A stretch of 32,000 nucleotides of DNA from Geobacter metallireducens GS-15 (lineage in GTDB: Bacteria; Desulfobacterota; Desulfuromonadia; Geobacterales; Geobacteraceae): contig NC_007517.1 of assembly GCF_000012925.1 (NCBI RefSeq), positions 3,330,001-3,362,000 on the forward strand, read 5' to 3'. Below the pieces are notes generated by a model, which saw only the letters and a list, made by a program, of their open reading frames with translations, made no database searches and was not told the origin of the DNA. Made by a program: the position numbers and the translations under genes. Below, piece by piece: positions 19,533-30,278 of the stretch (positions within the stretch are counted from its first letter, which is position 1; the number at the start of each line of letters is the position of its first letter).

Positions 19533-19850
19533 TCAATGCGCCATTTTGAGCGTGGCAACACCAGCCACGATAAGTGCCACGCCCGCGTATCGAGCAATTG
19601 ACGTCGGATCACCATAATAGTGAACCCCGACAAGAAAGGTTCCAGCAGCGCCGATGCCTGTCCAGACGGCATAGGCAGTGCCGATTGGAATTTGCCGTTG
19701 AGCCATCCAAAGAAAAAGTCCGCTGAACGCCATGAAAACAACGGCGACTCCAATGCCCGGCCACCGGGTCTCGGGTGCTTGTGCCATCTTCAGGCCGACT
19801 GGTCAGCCGATCTCAAAGAGGCCGGCAAGAACGAGGTAAAACCATGCCAT
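19533..19850 (-). pseudogene. sugE: SMR-family transporter (SugE/Gdx-like) interrupted by an in-frame TGA
   Basis: My own translation from the ATG at 19850 (GGAG 6 nt upstream) gives MAWFYLVLAGLFEIG*PVGLKMAQAPETRWPGIGVAVVFMAF...IPIGTAYAVWTGIGAAG...ALIVAGVATLKMAH. This aligns residue for residue with E. coli SugE ([26 protein letters not shown]...). The TGA at 19805-19803 sits exactly at the conserved Trp. The ORF track shows only the 84-aa downstream piece, which lacks the essential membrane Glu. Confidence 0.75.
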
Positions 19851-19929
19851 GATGATCTCCGTACTTGGGAACTAATGGAGCGGGGGATTGACCTGCCGGG
19901 CGGATTCCCCGCCCGGTCTGAGTGCGTGG

Positions 19930-20481: not shown

Positions 20482-21891
20482 TCAATAAGAATAGCACTCC
20501 GCAAACTTCTTATTGATAATAGGTTCTTCTGTGAAAGAATACTCCCTTTTTGCCTCCTCCCAGCTGCTCACAACACCCCTCTGTAACAGAGCGTTTGGAG
20601 TTCTTTGGCTCCACAAGTTCTCCAGCTCTTCATAACAGCTGAATTGTCTTATCTGTACCGGAGCAATATCCCCACTCATAGTTTTCGCAACTCTAGCTTC
20701 ATCTAATAATTCAACAAGCTGTTCGTAACTCATACCGCTTCGTAGCTTCACCTTCATCCTCGCAAGACTTTCCTCAAATCTAACGTTTTTGGAAGTCGTG
20801 TGTTCCTGCACAGGCGGAGGAGAGGCAACTGAGGAGGACGACAAGTTGCGCATGACAGGTGTTTTCGCTACTTCGTGTAGTTGAGGGGCGGTCTGAGAAT
20901 TAATCTTGTTATTGTCCTCTGTTCCGCGAAATAACGCCACAAGCCCTATCAGCGAGGCAATTGCCGCAAGAATCATCAGAATGACATAGACAGGATGCCG
21001 TTGTGCCCTGTCCCATACAGTCTGGCTCCTTTCCCTGTCCATCCTTTCCCGCTGTCGGTCCGATAGAGTTATTTCCCGTTTGAAATACATCGGGCTGGTT
21101 GCGATTAAATGTTTTTCCCAGTCCGACGTGGCGGCGTTCTTATTGATCTTGACAAAGCTCAGTTCATAGTCGGGATCTTTGTAATAGTGCATCTTCACCG
21201 TATCGCCAGTAATCCTATAATCGTCCAACGCTCTTTGCAGGTGCGGATTTTCTTGCCGACAGTAGATTTCGTACGTTTTTATTTCAGGGTGTTCATACAT
21301 TTCAACGATCAGGTTTTCAACGTCCTGCGCGGTATAGTCGTCGCATTCCGTTATGGAAACCAAGTGGCTGGTAATCGAATCCGGCATGCCGATGTCGGGA
21401 AAAATCGGTTTGGGGCCATCCTTGCCTTTCCCGACCCTTAACAACGAATAAAGCGGGCATTGGGTGTAATGCATCGACTCAACCAAGCTCCAATTCCATC
21501 GCCAGTCTTCGGGCGTGGCCCCCTCATTGCGAAGCGTTTTATGAGTGCAATCTACATCTATTTCATCTGCAAACCTATGCAGTTCAGCGGCAAAAAGACC
21601 AAAGCGGTCATACGACACTTCAGGGCAAAACCGCATGAAGTGCTTAACCTCGTTTCCTGGTCCTGATATTGAGGTTGCTTGTTCGGCGGTGACCGGCCAT
21701 ACCTCAGTTTGCTCCCACTGTTGTTTTAATCTGCTATCTTCAGCAGGGGCGATTCCAGTACTTCCAGCCTCACCAAGCAAGGATAGGCTTTGGTAGTATC
21801 TTGGGCAGTGATATACCGTGGCATAGGGACAGCGAGGACTTAGTTGTTGTTGCGTACTGATGCTTAAATACCAATCCAAATTCGGGATCAT
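20482..21891 (-). CDS. hypothetical membrane-anchored protein (469 aa), Cys-rich N-terminal domain, one central TM helix
   Basis: The ATG at 21891 has GGAG 7 nt upstream; the TTG at 21897 used by the track is also possible. It has a single hydrophobic helix, VYVILMILAAIASLIGLVALF, near ORF-track residue 303-323. N-terminal motifs include CPYATVYHCPRYYQSL and FCPEVSYDRFG. I recognise no family. G+C is mixed (two lines spot-counted at 40% and 58%). Confidence 0.6.
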   Translation of the reverse strand: MIPNLDWYLSISTQQQLSPRCPYATVYHCPRYYQSLSLLGEAGSTGIAPAEDSRLKQQWEQTEVWPVTAEQATSISGPGNEVKHFMRFCPEVSYDRFGLFAAELHRFADEIDVDCTHKTLRNEGATPEDWRWNWSLVESMHYTQCPLYSLLRVGKGKDGPKPIFPDIGMPDSITSHLVSITECDDYTAQDVENLIVEMYEHPEIKTYEIYCRQENPHLQRALDDYRITGDTVKMHYYKDPDYELSFVKINKNAATSDWEKHLIATSPMYFKREITLSDRQRERMDRERSQTVWDRAQRHPVYVILMILAAIASLIGLVALFRGTEDNNKINSQTAPQLHEVAKTPVMRNLSSSSVASPPPVQEHTTSKNVRFEESLARMKVKLRSGMSYEQLVELLDEARVAKTMSGDIAPVQIRQFSCYEELENLWSQRTPNALLQRGVVSSWEEAKREYSFTEEPIINKKFAECYSY

Positions 21892-21909
21892 TGCCAACTC
21901 CGATTGTTT

Positions 21910-23394
21910 AGTCGCCCCTGAAAAAGTATAACATACTGATGTTATTGATATAATTTGCGTTTATTGTGTGGTAAAATCGCCAGCAATTGAATCAACACTC
22001 TCAAAACCTGGTGATTTCATGAAACCAAAAACAAGCGCCACCGGCCAGGAAGATCTGTTCCGCTCCCGACTCGATCAGATCCTCAACGCCGGCATCCCCT
22101 GTTCCGCCTGGCCAACACCATCGACTGGACGGTCTTTGACAAGGAGTTTGGTTCCCACTACGTCGCCAAAATCGGTCGACCGGGACTGCCGATCCGTTTG
22201 CTGGTCGGGCTGCACTACCTCAAGCATGCCTACAATGTGAGCGATGAGGCGGTGGTAGCCCAGTTCATCGAAAACGGTTACTGGCAGTACTTCTGCGGCT
22301 TCGAACACTTCCAGCACCAGTTCCCGCTCGATCCGACCACGTTGGTCAAGTGGCGCAAGCGCATCGGACCCAAGGGGATGGAGAAGTTGCTCCAGGTGAC
22401 CATCGAGACGGCCAAGGGCAAGGAGTACGTGACCGAAAAAGACCTGGAGCGAGTCAACGTCGACACCACGGTCCAGGAAAAGGCCATCGCCTTTCCGACC
22501 GACGCCCGACTTTACCACAAGGCCCGGCGTATTCTGGTGCGGCTCGCCAGAAGAGGCGGCATCGAGCTTCGCCAGAGTTACGAGCGACTTGGCAAGCGGG
22601 CCTTCATCATGCAGGGTCGTTACAGCCACGCCCGGCAGACGAAACGGGCCAAGCGGGAACAAAAGCGGCTGCGCCTGTACCTTGGCCGGGTGATTCGTGA
22701 CATCCAACGCAAATGCGAGGCTCCGGCCCCTCTGCTGGCCACCATGCTGGAGCGGGCGAAGCGGATCTTTGGCCAGAAGCGAAACGACTCGAACAAGCTC
22801 TACAGCATGCAGGCCCCCGAAGTGGAATGCATCGCCAAGGGCAAGGCCCACAAGAAATACGAATTTGGCTGCAAGGTATCGCTGGTCAGCACCTCAGAGA
22901 ACAGCTGGATCGTCGGCGTTCAGGCCGTCCATGGCAACCCGTATGACGGGCATACCCTAAAAGAGGCGCTCGATCAGGCACAGGCCATCAGTGGCTGGCG
23001 CCCCCAGCATGCTTATTGCGACAAAGGCTACAAAGGCGCCCCGGCAAAACTCGACAGCACCGAGATCCATCTGGCCAACAAGAAAAAGAAGAGCATGAAG
23101 GCCAGCGCCTGGAAATGGTATCGCAGGCGCAGCGGCATCGAGCCGATTATCGGCCACGTCAAGCAAGACCACCGGATGGACCGCAACTACCTGAAGGGCG
23201 AAGAAGGCGACAAAATCAACGCCATCCTGGCCGGGTGCGGCTTCAACATCAGGAAGCTCCTCAGAGCTATCCTTTTGTGGCTTTTCAAAGAGCGATTCAG
23301 GGGCATCGATCTGAACCTGATGCCCTTGCTGGAGTGCTTACCCTGCCGGTTTCAGACCAACTGAGACCGTTTGGGGACTTTTTCAGGGACGACT
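21910..23394 (+). mobile_element. IS5-family insertion sequence (about 1485 bp)
   Basis: The 18-bp terminal inverted repeats match 17/18: AGTCGCCCCTGAAAAAGT (21910-21927) against the reverse complement of 23377-23394 (AGTCGTCCCTGAAAAAGT). The element is flanked by direct repeats TGTTT (21905-21909 and 23395-23399). Because the 8-mer TTGTTTAG occurs at both junctions, the exact end and target-site duplication length (4-7 bp, possibly a YTAR-type TTAG) are ambiguous. It encloses a DDE transposase gene. Confidence 0.8.
22019..23364 (+). pseudogene. IS5-family (DUF772 + DDE_Tnp_1) transposase with a frameshift near 22087
   Basis: Frame A from the ATG at 22019 reads MKPKTSATGQEDLFRSRLDQILN. The homologous continuation RRHPLFRLANTIDWTVFDKEFGSHYVAKIGRPGLPIRLLVGLHYLKHAYNVSDE... 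lies in the -1 frame from 22087. This is consistent with loss of one C from AAC CGC CGG. The downstream frame has DDE-like blocks (NVDTTVQEK, AYCDKGY, GIEPIIGHVKQ). Confidence 0.75.
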
Positions 23395-23485
23395 TGTTTA
23401 GCCTACCAACTGGACCGGACTTGACCCGCCCGCCCAGTTTCTTTGGGCGGTCGGTGTCCAAGGGCGTGGTTATACCCTGTCCTCT

Positions 23486-24130
23486 CTATGTTCGTGCGCT
23501 TGCAAATGGCTCAAGCATAGGGAATTGACGTTTAACAGCATATGCGAGTTTGTCGTAGATGGCCTGATCTCCAGCATCATGTGTTGCCATACATAAATAG
23601 TAATTGTTTCCATCTTGTTTGGCGAAGATGAGCCATTCTCCAGTCATACGTCCTTCATCGGAACGAGCCTCAAAAGGTTCGTGGACGACACGATGCGCCA
23701 ACTCGTTTATCATCTCACGCGTAATGATAGGTGACTTATTGGGATCTAATACTTCGTTTACTAAATTTTCGAGCTTTCCTCCGCGATTTAACTCTGCATG
23801 TATGTTGTGAGGCACGAAATGAGCTGAAAAGTAGTGCTTGTGCCATAATGGATGTAGTGGAGGATGTTTAAACTGCGTAGCAGGTTTGACGAAACTGGTA
23901 TGACTACTGCTTTCCAATGCTTTAATTTCTTGAACGATTTGTGTTGGGTCGATGCCATTTACTTCCAAATTTACCAACATATCCACCACAAGCAGCCATG
24001 AATATCGATTGGGTGCTACTGCATCAAGTCCTGTTAGGTCGGCGAAATCAGCTAATCGCTCATGAGTAATTTCTTTGATATAATCTCCGACATGTACTCG
24101 CAGTGTGACATTTGTAATTGGTTCGTTCAT
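23486..24130 (-). CDS. hypothetical protein C (214 aa), third gene of the island operon
   Basis: The ORF is intact, with an ATG at 24130 and an AGGAG RBS 7 nt upstream. G+C is low. The protein is soluble and has a His-rich segment (HPPLHPLWHKHYFSAHFVPHNIH). I recognise no family. Confidence 0.6.
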   Translation of the reverse strand: MNEPITNVTLRVHVGDYIKEITHERLADFADLTGLDAVAPNRYSWLLVVDMLVNLEVNGIDPTQIVQEIKALESSSHTSFVKPATQFKHPPLHPLWHKHYFSAHFVPHNIHAELNRGGKLENLVNEVLDPNKSPIITREMINELAHRVVHEPFEARSDEGRMTGEWLIFAKQDGNNYYLCMATHDAGDQAIYDKLAYAVKRQFPMLEPFASART

Positions 24131-24170
24131 ATTATTGCTCCTATTTTTACTGAAGAAGCCCTAATCGCTT

Positions 24171-25100
24171 TTATATCTCATCATCTCTTGCGCGATCTTT
24201 ATTTCGACCACTCCGCGGCATTGCTTCAGGGACTCCTTCTCCAGGCGAAACTATTGTCCGAATGTTTGCATCTTTGAGCCTTTCTCTAAGCACTGATGCC
24301 ATTGTTCTGCCTGTCGCTTTAGCTTCTTCAAAGGCTTCATGGATTTCATCACCTGAGATGGTGCCACCTTCTGGTGCCATTACGATTGTACTCATGTGAA
24401 AAGCCGCTTCGGCGTCAGTCGTAGGTGTTGACTTGTCTATGATGAAATTGAGAGCATCCTCATTGCTGAAAATGGCTTCCATGCCATCTCCTCGACCATA
24501 CGAATGCTTGACTATGTCACTGTTGTTTATAAGCAGTTCCAGATCGCATAGGTCCTCGTTATGAAACGGAATATGAAAATCGTTGTACTTTATAAAGGGC
24601 ATCTTGTTCACATACATTTGCATGTGGTAGTGCGGAAAATCGCTATTCCTACTTGTAGAATGCCCTTTAAAGTCGGTGTCTGAACAAGAATACGACCAGG
24701 TTATATGCTTGTATCTTGCAGTAAAATCGAAAATCTTATTTCCTGAATGCTCATCTTTTAAATCGTTGATATTTCTTATTGGTCCATCAATAGCTGCCAC
24801 CCATCTTGCATAGGCGGATATTCTAAAGTACCTGAAGTTCTCCATAAGGTATTTAAAGTGGTTTTTCTTGAACCCTTTTGGTTTTAAAAGCCAATGAAGG
24901 CAAGGATTACTAACGCTAAAGGTTTTCAGTGGCTTGTTGCAAATGCTGCAAACGCCTTTTCTGAAGAGTTCTGAGAAGTTTTCCCAATCCTCTTCCGCCC
25001 GCAGTGCCTCAATTTGACTACCCTTACGCTTCTCTTTTTCTGGTAGTTCCCTGAACCATTTTGCAAATTCGACCGGATTAATTTCAGTTTGTTTTTTCAT
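24171..25100 (-). CDS. hypothetical protein B (309 aa) with CxxC...CxH and His-rich motifs
   Basis: The ORF is intact, with an ATG at 25100. It carries C51-x2-C54-x12-C67-x-H69 (CSICNKPLKTFSVSNPCLH), then FPHYHMQMY and HIPFHNEDL. No TM helix is present. I recognise no family. Confidence 0.6.
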   Translation of the reverse strand: MKKQTEINPVEFAKWFRELPEKEKRKGSQIEALRAEEDWENFSELFRKGVCSICNKPLKTFSVSNPCLHWLLKPKGFKKNHFKYLMENFRYFRISAYARWVAAIDGPIRNINDLKDEHSGNKIFDFTARYKHITWSYSCSDTDFKGHSTSRNSDFPHYHMQMYVNKMPFIKYNDFHIPFHNEDLCDLELLINNSDIVKHSYGRGDGMEAIFSNEDALNFIIDKSTPTTDAEAAFHMSTIVMAPEGGTISGDEIHEAFEEAKATGRTMASVLRERLKDANIRTIVSPGEGVPEAMPRSGRNKDRARDDEI

Positions 25101-25167
25101 GTCTTAGTTCTCTGTATAACGGGGCTGCGCCTGACCTGCCGGGCAGCCTTATCGCCCGGTCATGGTC

Positions 25168-26538
25168 TTAGCGCAAGTTGGGTGCTAGGTCGGTGTTAGT
25201 TATCACAGATGACAAATCCCATTCTGCTATTCCTTCTAACCCCTTGGCTAAATATGTTGCCTTTGTGGGTGAAAACGAGCTGACTGTGCAGCCAAATGTT
25301 CTGCTGATTTCCTCTTTATGATCTTTTGGCAATTGTTCCCACCAAATTGGAGAAATGGCGTGATTTTCACAGGCGGAAATCACCAAGCGGAAAAGCATAT
25401 CTGCGACACGGCTTCCAGTTGACATCTCTTCGAATAGTGACGACAGAAACCTATTGCAGATCTGAGAACTTGTATGGTGCCAAGCGAACAAAAACCCCCA
25501 TCCCTTCGCCATTGGTGCAGAACAAAAAGTAATGAGGTCAAAGTCATTCCGATGGTCGGCTAGATATTGTAGCTGTGTCCCTTTAAAGTCATAGTCAGGG
25601 TAGAATAAACCCGAAAATGCGATAGGTGGGGCGCCCTTGAACGTGAATAATGCATGCTTTATGTCATTAAAGGCTGATTTTCTCAATGAATCGTCATAAT
25701 TTGACTTGTGACGTTTGAGGTTTTTAAATCCAATTTCTGTTCCAGCTTTGAAAGCTTCTAGGTGGCCTCTTAAGAAGTTATTGGCTGGGATATCATTTAT
25801 CTTGTGGGTTATGAGATTTAACGCATTATCCTTAACGAAAACCTCTCGGCAAATGGACCTATAAGCATACAGGAACACTTGTTCATTTGTAGGAAGAAGC
25901 AGGCTATTATCTATAGGAGCAAAAAGTTCGTTATCGTGTTTTTTACAGAATCCTAGAAATGTTGATACGGTGCCTATGCCATTCAATTCATAAGCAGGTG
26001 CACCTCTGTTTTCCCTCAACGTAGTCATGTTCGCTGAAGGAGTATAAACATGGCCATCGCGCGATATTGCTGACAGCGCTTGATTCTTTTGGATTGAATG
26101 AGCATTTATATATTCACGACATCGGACTCCGCCATCGTAATGCAGGCATCTTCCTCGATTTTTTTCCTGTTTCTGCTTCCTTAAGTGAGATTCGACATTT
26201 GGTTTGAACGATGGCCTGATTGTAATAGGCTCTACAGACGTCTTTTTGTCTCTCGCCCATCCGACGTAAAAGAAGGCGAGCCCTTCCTGCTGGGCTTTTG
26301 CATATTGTTCTGCACCTATGTCCTCACCGACAAAGTTCTCTTGTGTTACTTCAATAGGTGGGGTTTCTACTCCTGTGATTAGCCAGTCGTATTTTGAAAC
26401 CTGGAATGTAGCTTTCGCAAAGGCAACTTCAGGGTCAGTTTCGAGAATCCAGCATCCCACCAAAGCTCCTTCTGCCATATCGTAATTTTCATTTTCTCGC
26501 GTAGGCACGACTTGAAGTTGCATGAAAAATGTCTTCAT
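25168..26538 (-). CDS. hypothetical protein A (456 aa) with central Cys/His motif reminiscent of His-Me-finger (HNH-like) nucleases
   Basis: The ORF is intact, with an ATG at 26538 and an AGGTGA RBS 5 nt upstream. The central block is GRCLHYDGGVRCREYINAHSIQKNQALSAISRDGHVY...FLGFCKKHDNELFAPID. No Walker A motif or TM helix was seen by eye. The family is not recognised. Confidence 0.6.
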   Translation of the reverse strand: MKTFFMQLQVVPTRENENYDMAEGALVGCWILETDPEVAFAKATFQVSKYDWLITGVETPPIEVTQENFVGEDIGAEQYAKAQQEGLAFFYVGWARDKKTSVEPITIRPSFKPNVESHLRKQKQEKNRGRCLHYDGGVRCREYINAHSIQKNQALSAISRDGHVYTPSANMTTLRENRGAPAYELNGIGTVSTFLGFCKKHDNELFAPIDNSLLLPTNEQVFLYAYRSICREVFVKDNALNLITHKINDIPANNFLRGHLEAFKAGTEIGFKNLKRHKSNYDDSLRKSAFNDIKHALFTFKGAPPIAFSGLFYPDYDFKGTQLQYLADHRNDFDLITFCSAPMAKGWGFLFAWHHTSSQICNRFLSSLFEEMSTGSRVADMLFRLVISACENHAISPIWWEQLPKDHKEEISRTFGCTVSSFSPTKATYLAKGLEGIAEWDLSSVITNTDLAPNLR

Positions 26539-26560: not shown

Positions 26561-26592
26561 TGAGCGGTTCACGTGCGCGCGTGAACCGCTCA
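26561..26592. repeat. perfect 13-bp GC-rich inverted repeat (hairpin) between the TA pair and gene A
   Basis: TGAGCGGTTCACG (26561-26573), a 6-nt loop TGCGCG, then CGTGAACCGCTCA (26580-26592). It lies 23 nt upstream of the gene A start and 64 nt downstream of the antitoxin stop. No U-tract follows on the minus strand. Confidence 0.7.
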
Positions 26593-26655: not shown

Positions 26656-26997
26656 TCAGGCCGCTTTCAGCATAAAATCCACATGCACCGCGTCAAAGGG
26701 AAAGACAATCAGCCCTTTGTCAGTTTTCTGCACTATCCCAGCCTTGAGCAGCACATGCACATCGGCATGCACCGCTTTTACATCCCTCTTCATTCGGCGG
26801 GCTGCCTCACGAATTGTCATCGGTCCGGCACCGGTCATAACTTTGAGCAGATCCCAGCGCCGGCCCGAAATCACCTTGAACAGGAGTTCGGGCGACTCGA
26901 AACTGATAAAGGCCCCTTGCGATTCGTCATCGAACGCCCGCAGAAACCTGCGATTGATTTTTTCACGGGAAGCAATTTCCAACGTTACGGTACGCAT
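26656..26997 (-). CDS. winged-helix/MarR-like DNA-binding protein, putative antitoxin partner of the DUF6516 gene
   Basis: The 113-aa product is MRTVTLEIASREKINRRFLRAFDDESQGAFISFESPELLFKVISGRRWDLLKVMTGAGPMTIREAARRMKRDVKAVHADVHVLLKAGIV.... A GGAGG RBS lies 7 nt upstream. Its ATG sits 1 nt after the upstream TAA (TAATATG). The longer 183-aa track ORF overlaps the toxin gene. Confidence 0.7.
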   Translation of the reverse strand: MRTVTLEIASREKINRRFLRAFDDESQGAFISFESPELLFKVISGRRWDLLKVMTGAGPMTIREAARRMKRDVKAVHADVHVLLKAGIVQKTDKGLIVFPFDAVHVDFMLKAA

Positions 26998-26998
26998 A

Positions 26999-27280
26999 TT
27001 AAAACCTCCGATTGTCCACATCTCTCCAGAAGTCATCCAACAGGTCCTGAGGCGAGGTAAAGGAATACGGCATTTCTTCTTCGCCCAGGTGCTTGTGATC
27101 ACCCTTGCCCGCCTCATTGTCATAGCGAAGCACACATTGCTCATCGACAACAAGGGCAAGTCGATACTTGAAGCCATGTGCGCTTCCGGGAAGAGGCGAC
27201 GGCACACGCCACACCACCATCTCTACAAACGCATTTTCAGAAATGATGTGGCGTTCGTTCAGAAGAAGTTTCGCATTCAT
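26999..27280 (-). CDS. DUF6516-family (TumE-like) putative toxin
   Basis: The 93-aa product is MNAKLLLNERHIISENAFVEMVVWRVPSPLPGSAHGFKYRLALVVDEQCVLRYDNEAGKGDHKHLGEEEMPYSFTSPQDLLDDFWRDV. The pattern ...KY.L.......v..YDNE.GKG.H.H... matches my recollection of DUF6516/TumE-type proteins. No SD precedes the ATG at 27280. Confidence 0.65.
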   Translation of the reverse strand: MNAKLLLNERHIISENAFVEMVVWRVPSPLPGSAHGFKYRLALVVDEQCVLRYDNEAGKGDHKHLGEEEMPYSFTSPQDLLDDFWRDVDNRRF

Positions 27281-27287
27281 GTTGGAG

Positions 27288-27329
27288 AGAGTAACAACGG
27301 CAATTAGTGTTGTCAACACCTACAACACT
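27288..27329 (-). promoter_or_regulatory. putative promoter plus operator of the DUF6516 TA operon
   Basis: The minus strand reads TTGACA (27316-27311), a 17-nt spacer, then TACTCT (27293-27288), with the ATG only 7 nt after the -10. The 13-bp palindrome GTGTTGTCAACAC (27307-27319) covers the -35. A second dyad is AGTGTTG (27306-27312) with CAACACT (27323-27329). Confidence 0.5.
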
Positions 27330-29679: not shown

Positions 29680-29985
29680 CTAGGCCACGAGGCGTGTGTG
29701 AACTTCACGCTCGATTTTCGAGCCCAGTTCCCGTTCGGCGATCTTAAGGTCGTAACTGGTCTGCAGATTGAGCCAGAACTGCGGCGTTGTGCCGAAGTAC
29801 CGGGCCAGCCTGAGAGCCGTGTCGGGCGTAACGGCACGGCGCTCGCGCACGATGTCGTTGATGCGCGGCGCCGGCACCTTGAGTTCCAGCGCCAGCGCAT
29901 GGGCACTCATCCCCAGGGGGATCAGGAACTCCTCACGCAGCACTTCACCGGGATGAATGGGGCGCATTCTGTTGGTGGGGTTCAT
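29680..29985 (-). CDS. higA: HigA-family antitoxin (XRE HTH)
   Basis: The product is ...RPIHPGEVLREEFLIPLGMSAHALALELKVPAPRINDIVRERRAVTPDTALRLARYFGTTPQFWLNLQTSYDL, the canonical HigA signature. The start may be the ATG at 29985 or the internal Met at residue 7. Confidence 0.9.
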   Translation of the reverse strand: MNPTNRMRPIHPGEVLREEFLIPLGMSAHALALELKVPAPRINDIVRERRAVTPDTALRLARYFGTTPQFWLNLQTSYDLKIAERELGSKIEREVHTRLVA

Positions 29986-29999
29986 AACGTTTCATCTCC

Positions 30000-30278
30000 T
30001 CAATGGTAATCCACGATCTCCACATCAAAGGCGTTGCCATCCTCAAAGCGAAAGCAAAGGCGCCACTGATCGTTGATCCGGATGCTCCACTGTCCTTTGC
30101 GGTCACCGCGCAAGACTTCCAGGCGGTTGCCCGGGGGCGAGCGGAGATCTTCGGGCGAGTGGGCGTCATCAAGCATTTGCAGCTTTCGCTCGGCAACCGT
30201 AGAGAACGCCTTGAACCGACGCGGGCATTTCCCCTCGAACAAAGCCTGGGTGTCCTTGCAGCGGAATGACTTGATCAT
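30000..30278 (-). CDS. higB: HigB-family toxin (RelE-like, plasmid maintenance system killer)
   Basis: The 92-aa product is MIKSFRCKDTQALFEGKCPRRFKAFSTVAERKLQMLDDAHSPEDLRSPPGNRLEVLRGDRKGQWSIRINDQWRLCFRFEDGNAFDVEIVDYH, a canonical HigB. It lies upstream of higA, the order expected for this family. Confidence 0.9.
   Translation of the reverse strand: MIKSFRCKDTQALFEGKCPRRFKAFSTVAERKLQMLDDAHSPEDLRSPPGNRLEVLRGDRKGQWSIRINDQWRLCFRFEDGNAFDVEIVDYH

Follow-up and report, generated by a model that had tools for sequence, protein, structure and literature searches.

A predicted Rugutis-family gene and two apparently unrelated solitary genes lie head-to-tail in a low-G+C island of Geobacter metallireducens GS-15

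Three genes of Geobacter metallireducens GS-15, called A, B, and C here, lie within a low-G+C island of a 32,000-nt stretch of the chromosome (NC_007517.1, 3,330,001-3,362,000). The whole of this stretch is called the window, and all positions given are window positions. The island is probably a mosaic of independently mobile single-gene conflict modules, in which A is a member of the family of Rugutis, a lactococcal single-gene anti-phage system, and B and C are unrelated solitary genes. The three genes are as follows.

25168-26538, minus strand: gene A, 456 amino acids (aa), Gmet_2967 of strain GS-15, a Rugutis-family single-gene candidate anti-phage protein
24171-25100, minus strand: gene B, 309 aa, an orphan family that carries a zinc-ribbon-like motif and a His cluster
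23486-24130, minus strand: gene C, 214 aa, an orphan family (phrog_33791)

A preliminary description of the locus had read A, B, and C as intact open reading frames (ORFs) of one strand. The ORF coordinates bear this out, with spacers of 67 bp between A and B and 40 bp between B and C. Its account of the ribosome-binding sites also holds: the Shine-Dalgarno sequences AGGTGA and AGGAG are located ahead of A and C, respectively, and B has GAGAA only. The annotation of A in strain RCH3 (EHP87181.1, 430 aa) begins 26 codons too late (start region 26460-26538). The 456-aa form, as annotated in GS-15, is matched by homologues from its first residue. As the same description supposed, A, B, and C are genuine, maintained genes. 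They have 449, 123, and 176 homologue clusters, respectively, with many full-length members for all three. B and C are under purifying selection, with ratios of nonsynonymous to synonymous divergence (dN/dS) of 0.06-0.11 (approximately 0.11 for B and 0.06-0.08 for C).

None of the three proteins could be placed in a family at first. This remains so for Pfam, NCBIfam, and PADLOC, which give zero matches for A, B, and C. A Pfam scan of 33-34 individual family members added nothing, and sequence and profile searches against PDB chains were empty for all three proteins. PADLOC had no match for B, C, or 70 family members, and a literature search on Gmet_2964 to Gmet_2968 found nothing. A, however, can now be placed in the Rugutis family, and C matches an unnamed family of PHROGs.

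A profile search with A against 1.8 billion cluster representatives (E <= 1e-3) yielded 4351 relatives. Most of them are approximately 370 aa long and match only A residues ~110-450. Among the distant relatives scanned, 22 of 34 carry an N-terminal SEC-C motif (PF02810), and the majority of the 4351 are proteins of this SEC-C type. A tblastn search of plasmids with A retrieved 30 'SEC-C domain-containing proteins', including a 359-aa protein of the Lactococcus plasmid pUCCL633A. From the strain, the length, and the SEC-C motif, we infer that this protein is the published Rugutis gene, pUCCL633_059. In BLASTP, A and Rugutis are 26% identical over 314 aa (E = 6e-26), and hhalign of a profile of A and its relatives against Rugutis gives 100% probability (E = 1.7e-43, 325 columns). 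Several motifs are preserved in both the A family and Rugutis, namely C131-x-H133-x6-C140, AHSIQ, G-F-C198-x2-H201-D202, Y226-R227...E232, and E391-N392. Because of this homology of the ~340-aa core and these conserved motifs, A belongs, as judged from sequence, to the Rugutis family as a divergent member with a new architecture. The parts of A are as follows.

25189-26217, minus strand: Rugutis-type core domain, residues ~108-450 (~340 aa), aligning to Rugutis residues 3-333
26239-26538, minus strand: N-terminal alpha/beta domain, residues ~1-100, occupying the SEC-C position of Rugutis
25933-26148, minus strand: Cys/His-rich motifs C131, H133, C140, AHSIQ (146-150), and GFCxxHD (C198, H201, D202), invariant or nearly so in alignments A1 and A5

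A itself lacks the SEC-C motif (PF02810) and has no Pfam match. Its N-terminal domain has the order beta-beta-alpha-beta-alpha-beta in the predicted structure, and many relatives are without this domain, starting at approximately residue 100-120 of A. The subfamily with the A-type N-domain comprises several hundred close homologue clusters (449). Every record seen of these homologues is without a Pfam domain and is named only 'hypothetical protein'. The Cys/His motifs may have a role in metal binding or catalysis. The AlphaFold (AF2) model of A is confident, with a predicted local distance difference test score (pLDDT) of 89.5 and a predicted template modeling score (pTM) of 0.88. A Foldseek search of PDB with this model found no structural neighbor, the best E being 0.07 and the template modeling (TM) scores <= 0.14 among the 50 matches listed. 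A was also considered by eye as an HNH-like nuclease from the pattern 'AHSIQ...HD', an idea that profile and fold searches did not support.

Rugutis is a single-gene anti-phage system of lactococci that was validated by plaque assays (PMC11381338; Grafakou et al. 2024, NAR 52:9760). It acts after DNA injection and confers an abortive-infection-like (Abi-like) phenotype on cultures. Phage c2 escapes Rugutis through mutations in the ATPase domain of its large terminase (escape study, PNAS 2025), and co-expression of the c2 large terminase with Rugutis is toxic (PMC12184496). Rugutis has a high-confidence AlphaFold model without a PDB counterpart (PMC11381338).

The neighborhoods of A homologues were surveyed at 36 loci of species-representative genomes, with up to 8 kb on each side. 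The neighbors include a Type ISP restriction enzyme, a NERD protein, HipA, a TIR/SEFIR protein, BrxL (BREX), GmrSD, LA2681-type HEPN and YhcG-type PD-(D/E)xK proteins, DNA methylases, integrases, transposases, and toxin-antitoxin genes. All-vs-all clustering of the flanking ORFs at the 36 loci revealed no recurring neighbor family. In the window, a toxin-antitoxin pair of TumE and an HVO_A0114-type partner (TumA-like) lies directly upstream of A, and a 471-aa ORF (ORF471) lies further downstream. The 36 loci contain no match to TumE, TumA, or ORF471, and the TumE/HVO_A0114 pair is thus independent of A. A SEC-C relative of A is found in a P4-like module with an integrase, AlpA, and a DUF927 primase on the Salmonella IncHI2 plasmid pS2122_1 (locus L164, record 165-175 kb). 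It adjoins a PARIS-like pair of an AAA ATPase and a DUF4435 protein, which suggests that the module is a satellite-borne defense hotspot.

Gene B has two conserved clusters.

24894-24950, minus strand: zinc-ribbon-like motif C51-x2-C54-x12-C67-x-H69, invariant columns of alignment A2, a putative zinc ribbon
24573-24674, minus strand: cluster of D143, G146, H147, H157-x-H159-x-Q161, and H176, invariant in alignment A2, a putative metal or active site

The AF2 model of B (pLDDT 90.1) consists of a helical hairpin, the C-x2-C-x12-C-x-H motif, a beta-rich domain, and a C-terminal alpha/beta domain that ends in a basic tail. The HxHxQ motif is located on a predicted beta-strand of the beta-rich domain. 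Foldseek found no structural neighbor of the B model in PDB or BFVD. The checks proposed in the preliminary description, AlphaFold models searched with Foldseek, thus gave confident models for A and B and no PDB neighbor for either. The residues C51, C54, C67, and H69 are predicted to bind zinc. With less assurance, B probably combines a zinc ribbon with a metal-dependent hydrolase site that is formed by the His cluster and acts on nucleic acid. The HxHxQ motif and the UniRef name of one homologue raised the idea of a HIT/Cwf19-like hydrolase, which Pfam, Foldseek, and hhalign ruled out. None of 33 members has a Pfam CwfJ or HIT match, no HIT structure is among the Foldseek matches, and hhalign of B against FHIT gives 0.2% probability (with an FHIT sequence entered by hand rather than taken from a database).

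Homologues of B were examined at 80 metagenomic loci. The immediate neighbors of B homologues elsewhere include serine recombinases, integrases, four DNA methylases, ResIII, GmrSD, AbiJ-NTD, a YoeB toxin, and Abi_alpha; another neighborhood contains a cysteine-desulfurase-type aminotransferase, a HATPase_c_3 protein, and an FtsK-like protein. The defense and mobile genes are intermixed with housekeeping genes, and no neighbor family recurs around B in all-vs-all clustering of the metagenomic loci. Six IMG/VR contigs carry a B homologue, several of them at or near the contig end. A tblastn search of phage and plasmid collections with B found none.

Gene C matches the unnamed phrog_33791 over residues 36-204 (E = 4e-17). 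Its conserved core is as follows.

23567-23845, minus strand: motifs PLxxLWHKHYFSAHF (P91-F105), TGEW (163-166), and YLCxxTHxxGD (178-188), invariant columns of alignment A3, His-rich

C is probably a His/Glu-dependent enzyme, though this is a weaker inference. A YafQ/RelE-type RNase had been considered from the JGI name of one homologue and by eye, and the match is local and not significant. The hhalign probability is approximately 4% against YafQ (27-38 columns) and 0.2% against RelE, the comparison sequences having been entered by hand rather than taken from a database. When the insertion in C was spliced out, neither a PDB profile match nor a YafQ match appeared. B and C were also considered as distant paralogues; MAFFT aligned their HxH motifs, but hhalign gave only 0.3%.

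Homologues of C were surveyed at 41 viral loci of IMG/VR. Distant homologues (24-30% identity) occupy one fixed slot in the morphogenesis region of approximately 17 related prophages (L141-L163, IMG/VR). In the Acinetobacter phage PhabP_R1, the C-like gene (L166:2741-3382) lies between head-completion genes and an HK97-gp10-like gene, with a gap of approximately 220 bp after it. The prophage slot is a typical moron position. Closer homologues are found on plasmids, beside another TumE/HVO_A0114 pair, and, in one genome, near Cas1 and PIN genes. Identity to C is 40-90% for the copies on chromosomes, plasmids, and integrons, compared with 24-30% for the phage copies. The TumE/HVO_A0114 pair just mentioned (L169:1285-1936) adjoins a 78%-identical C homologue in another organism; its orientation differs from that in the window, and the TumE identity is only 36%. 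The same hotspots may therefore attract both toxin-antitoxin pairs of this type and the orphan genes. A further C homologue, 46% identical, heads the cassette run of a true integron (L183:5806-13278 and L184), next to a split intI (258 + 66 aa), and its stop codon is overlapped by a 65-nt attC. The split intI is on one strand and is accompanied by a run of small same-strand cassettes. Many of these are followed by an attC of 57-123 nt, and nearly all of the other cassettes are without a Pfam match.

The preliminary description suggested that A, B, and C together make up a single new defense or addiction system, expressed as an operon. The common strand, the short gaps, the intact state of all three genes, the low G+C common to all of them, and the defense-island-like surroundings agree with this, as does the lack of a promoter-like site or canonical terminator in the A-B and B-C spacers. 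However, a search for co-occurrence, performed with tblastn and with hidden Markov models (HMMs) built from the three alignments, found B or C near A at 0 of 36 loci, A or C near B at 0 of 80, and A or B near C at 0 of 41. The trio is thus absent from all of these loci, a finding that the description itself had listed as contrary to its proposal. In addition, Rugutis, the relative of A, works as a single gene (PMC11381338), and the homology blocks stop at gene borders. The best non-self identities are 58% for A, 78% for B, and 93% for C, and these differing values indicate different histories of the three genes. By synteny and sequence divergence, the three-gene system is refuted and the genes appear independent; we consider such a system very improbable. 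A two-gene module of B and C, such as a toxin-antitoxin or sensor-effector pair with A separate, is favored by the only B-C adjacency found outside the window, in the near-identical contigs L037 and L038. The spacer between B (77% aa identity) and C (93%) is 41 bp there, compared with 40 bp in the window, and the two regions share 83% nucleotide identity over 1660 bp (23456-25100). A strong ribosome-binding site of its own also precedes C, shortly after the end of B. The shared homology runs from 30 bp past the C stop exactly to the B start codon and then ends, and the gene preceding B in these contigs is a 172-aa gene, not A. Since L037 and L038 are near-identical, however, they amount to a single independent case. 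Following them in closeness are B homologues at 75% (L039) and 69% (L168, Desulfuromonas), neither of which has a C after it, and the next C homologue, at 78% (L169/L170) has no B within the 476 bp available upstream. The pair is absent from all 80 B loci and all 41 C loci. Moreover, B has a synonymous divergence (dS) of 1.18 between the window and L037 and C one of 0.40, a threefold difference on the same contig pair, and therefore B and C did not diverge as one block. The synteny scans and the discordant dS rule out a conserved A-B-C or B-C operon, and a B-C module is improbable.

B and C might instead be mobile-element cargo for anti-defense, superinfection exclusion, or element maintenance, or might function outside conflict. 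The C homologues within the head-tail morphogenesis region of approximately 17 prophages and of PhabP_R1, the PHROG match of C, and the B and C homologues on IMG/VR contigs are consistent with this explanation. So are the blank PADLOC result for the 70 family members and the many neighbors that are integrases or recombinases rather than defense genes. Nevertheless, the neighbors of B include AbiJ-NTD, Abi_alpha, GmrSD, ResIII, and several DNA methylases, and C is near Cas1 and PIN genes in one genome. Furthermore, prophage morons and integron cassettes often encode defense or exclusion functions. The cargo explanation is rather unlikely, although it has a real share of the probability. A chromosomal integron or attC cluster, with A, B, and C as its gene cassettes, is hardly credible as an explanation of the array. 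Compact single genes on one strand, the toxin-antitoxin modules, and the presence of a hairpin behind several stop codons give the array such an appearance, and the integron homologue of C is a true cassette with an attC beside the split intI. However, a scan for R''/R' boxes plus a hairpin, which is a crude motif-plus-fold scan and not the IntegronFinder model, finds no attC in the island or in L037/L038, yet it recovers the attC sites of L183/L184. The island hairpins are without RYYYAAC/GTTRRRY boxes, and no integrase is present among the window ORFs examined. An attC-like site follows 1 of 47 A genes, 2 of 85 B genes, and 2 of 49 C genes.

The preferred explanation is thus the mosaic of independently mobile single-gene conflict modules, which would merely happen to lie head-to-tail in the order TumE/TumA, A, B, C, IS5, the 471-aa orphan, and a decayed Gp49/HTH (helix-turn-helix) pair. 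By homology with Rugutis, A would act alone after phage DNA entry as an Abi-type sensor-effector. A phage late protein would switch it on, as the large terminase appears to do for Rugutis and phage c2, and activated A would then arrest or kill the cell. The Cys/His cluster would probably be the metal center of the effector activity, and the ~100-aa N-domain in place of SEC-C probably alters the regulation or the trigger specificity. B and C may each be a stand-alone conflict gene for defense or exclusion, which is suggested less firmly. Their homologues recur in variable regions rich in integrase, recombinase, methylase, and Abi genes, at prophage ends, and as prophage morons; those of C also occur in an integron cassette. 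A defense role, as put forward in the preliminary description, is plausible, and in the case of A the homology to the validated Rugutis supports it, but the three genes do not form one system.

Several points weigh against this explanation. Given 26% identity and the lack of SEC-C, the activity of A, its trigger, and even its anti-phage role could differ from those of Rugutis. The mechanism proposed for A is drawn at the level of phenotype. For B and C, the defense reading is guilt by association, judged qualitatively from lists of the top 25 neighbor families, and many neighbors are housekeeping genes. Given the conserved 40/41-bp spacer in two other contigs, a functional pairing of B and C in this lineage is conceivable.

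This locus shows that tightly packed, intact genes on the same strand of a defense island need not form one system. An anonymous Geobacter gene and several hundred homologue clusters are now tied to Rugutis, a validated anti-phage protein. A second architecture of the Rugutis family without SEC-C would be useful to separate the sensing part from the killing part. B and C are two compact orphan families and offer cheap, testable candidates for new single-gene conflict functions. Tentatively, and with the odds somewhat against it, B and C may each found a new single-gene family directed against phages or mobile elements, with a confidently predicted fold of B that is absent from PDB and BFVD, and the A-type subfamily may show the Rugutis core coupled to an alternative N-terminal sensor or regulatory domain. 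If this is true, the A-type subfamily would provide a second handle on how the Rugutis fold kills cells.

The surroundings had been described as a low-G+C, defense-island-like setting rich in toxin-antitoxin genes and bearing an IS5 element, and this is correct. G+C is 0.42-0.44 over 23.5-26.5 kb, compared with 0.60-0.68 in most flanking windows and approximately 63% for the chromosome. The island is approximately 7.4 kb long (~19.89-27.33 kb), and every gene in it is on the minus strand except the IS5 transposase. Its flanks are ordinary chromosomal genes, such as those for glutaredoxin/DUF4124, methyltransferases, a GAF-PAS histidine kinase, and a B12-radical-SAM enzyme. The G+C dip and these ordinary flanks point to a foreign origin of the island. 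Its other features are as follows.

26656-27319, minus strand: TumE toxin (26999-27319) and HVO_A0114-type HTH partner (26656-26997), a toxin-antitoxin module directly upstream of A
21910-23394, plus strand: IS5-family element, inserted approximately 90 bp downstream of C, with a DDE transposase at 22198-23364
20482-21897, minus strand: 471-aa orphan ORF without a family match, containing a hydrophobic segment
19930-20475, minus strand: frame-broken Gp49-like/HTH remnant, a decayed toxin-antitoxin pair
25126-25175, minus strand: G+C-rich imperfect hairpin that spans the A stop codon, in the A-B spacer
26561-26592, no strand assigned: palindrome of 16+16 nt with 15/16 positions complementary (TGAGCGGTTCACG.../...CGTGAACCGCTCA), between the TumA-like gene (stop 26656) and A, 23 bp ahead of the A start

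TumE and its TumA-like HTH partner match PF20126 (E = 9e-17) and PF25212 (E = 8e-27) of Pfam, respectively. The IS5-family element has DUF772 and DDE_Tnp_1 domains and 18-nt terminal inverted repeats at 21910/23394, and it is 71% identical in nucleotides to ISGlo4. The first ~130 residues of the 471-aa ORF resemble a fragment (L168:1540-1922, 35-42% identity) of the Desulfuromonas locus, where a B homologue lies approximately 6 kb away. An intact HigB-like toxin (PF05015) with an HTH antitoxin is located at 29680-30278 on the minus strand, approximately 2.4 kb past the island, and is the third toxin-antitoxin locus within 11 kb. Just outside the island, at ~19790-19870 on the minus strand, an SMR/SugE-like small multidrug transporter frame (MAWFYLVLAGLFEIG, a stop, and then PVGL...) is apparently broken by an in-frame TGA, as read by eye. 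SMR/SugE-type proteins usually carry Trp at the position of this TGA.

No sigma-70-like promoter and no canonical terminator are predicted in the A-B and B-C spacers, which makes read-through transcription from upstream plausible. A, B, and C may be co-transcribed in this strain, but such an operon would have arisen by accretion, through the chance order of insertion, and would not be a functional unit. The hairpin at 25126-25175 has a DNA fold of -17.2 kcal/mol (z = -3.3) and lacks a T-run, so it is not a canonical intrinsic terminator. Its 30-nt core (25132-25161; GACCGGGC...GCCCGGCAGGTCA on the minus strand) recurs with 80% identity at 19889-19918, where it marks the left edge of the island. 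Both copies sit 7-12 nt past a minus-strand stop codon, that of gene A and that of the HTH remnant. The repeated sequence could be a repetitive extragenic palindrome (REP)-like element, a processing site, or a recombination scar. The palindrome at 26561-26592 folds to a 13-bp stem and could be a candidate operator or terminator.

Among known systems, A is closest to Rugutis. Both have the core of approximately 340 aa with the C/H, AHSIQ, GFCxxHD, YR...E, and EN motifs, both are solitary genes in mobile or defense contexts, and both have a confident predicted fold without a PDB relative. Unlike Rugutis, to which it is only 26% identical, A carries the alpha/beta N-domain of approximately 100 aa instead of a 20-residue SEC-C zinc motif. 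A comes from the chromosome of a gram-negative bacterium (Geobacter), whereas Rugutis comes from the lactococcal plasmid pUCCL633, and post-injection Abi-like activity with activation by the large terminase is known for the lactococcal protein only. The 'SEC-C domain-containing proteins' of approximately 370 aa, found on plasmids and chromosomes of Proteobacteria and Firmicutes, also have the core domain in common with A. They are annotated by the short SEC-C motif alone, whereas A is without this motif and belongs to a separate N-domain subfamily. For C, the likeness to phrog_33791 covers residues 36-204, although this PHROG carries no annotated function. B and C differ from the single-gene Abi proteins and other defense-island orphans in that no PADLOC, Pfam, or PDB entry is similar to them in sequence or structure (the structure search being that of the B model). 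They resemble them in being small and solitary, without conserved partners and under purifying selection, and in moving between variable regions, prophages, plasmids, and integrons.

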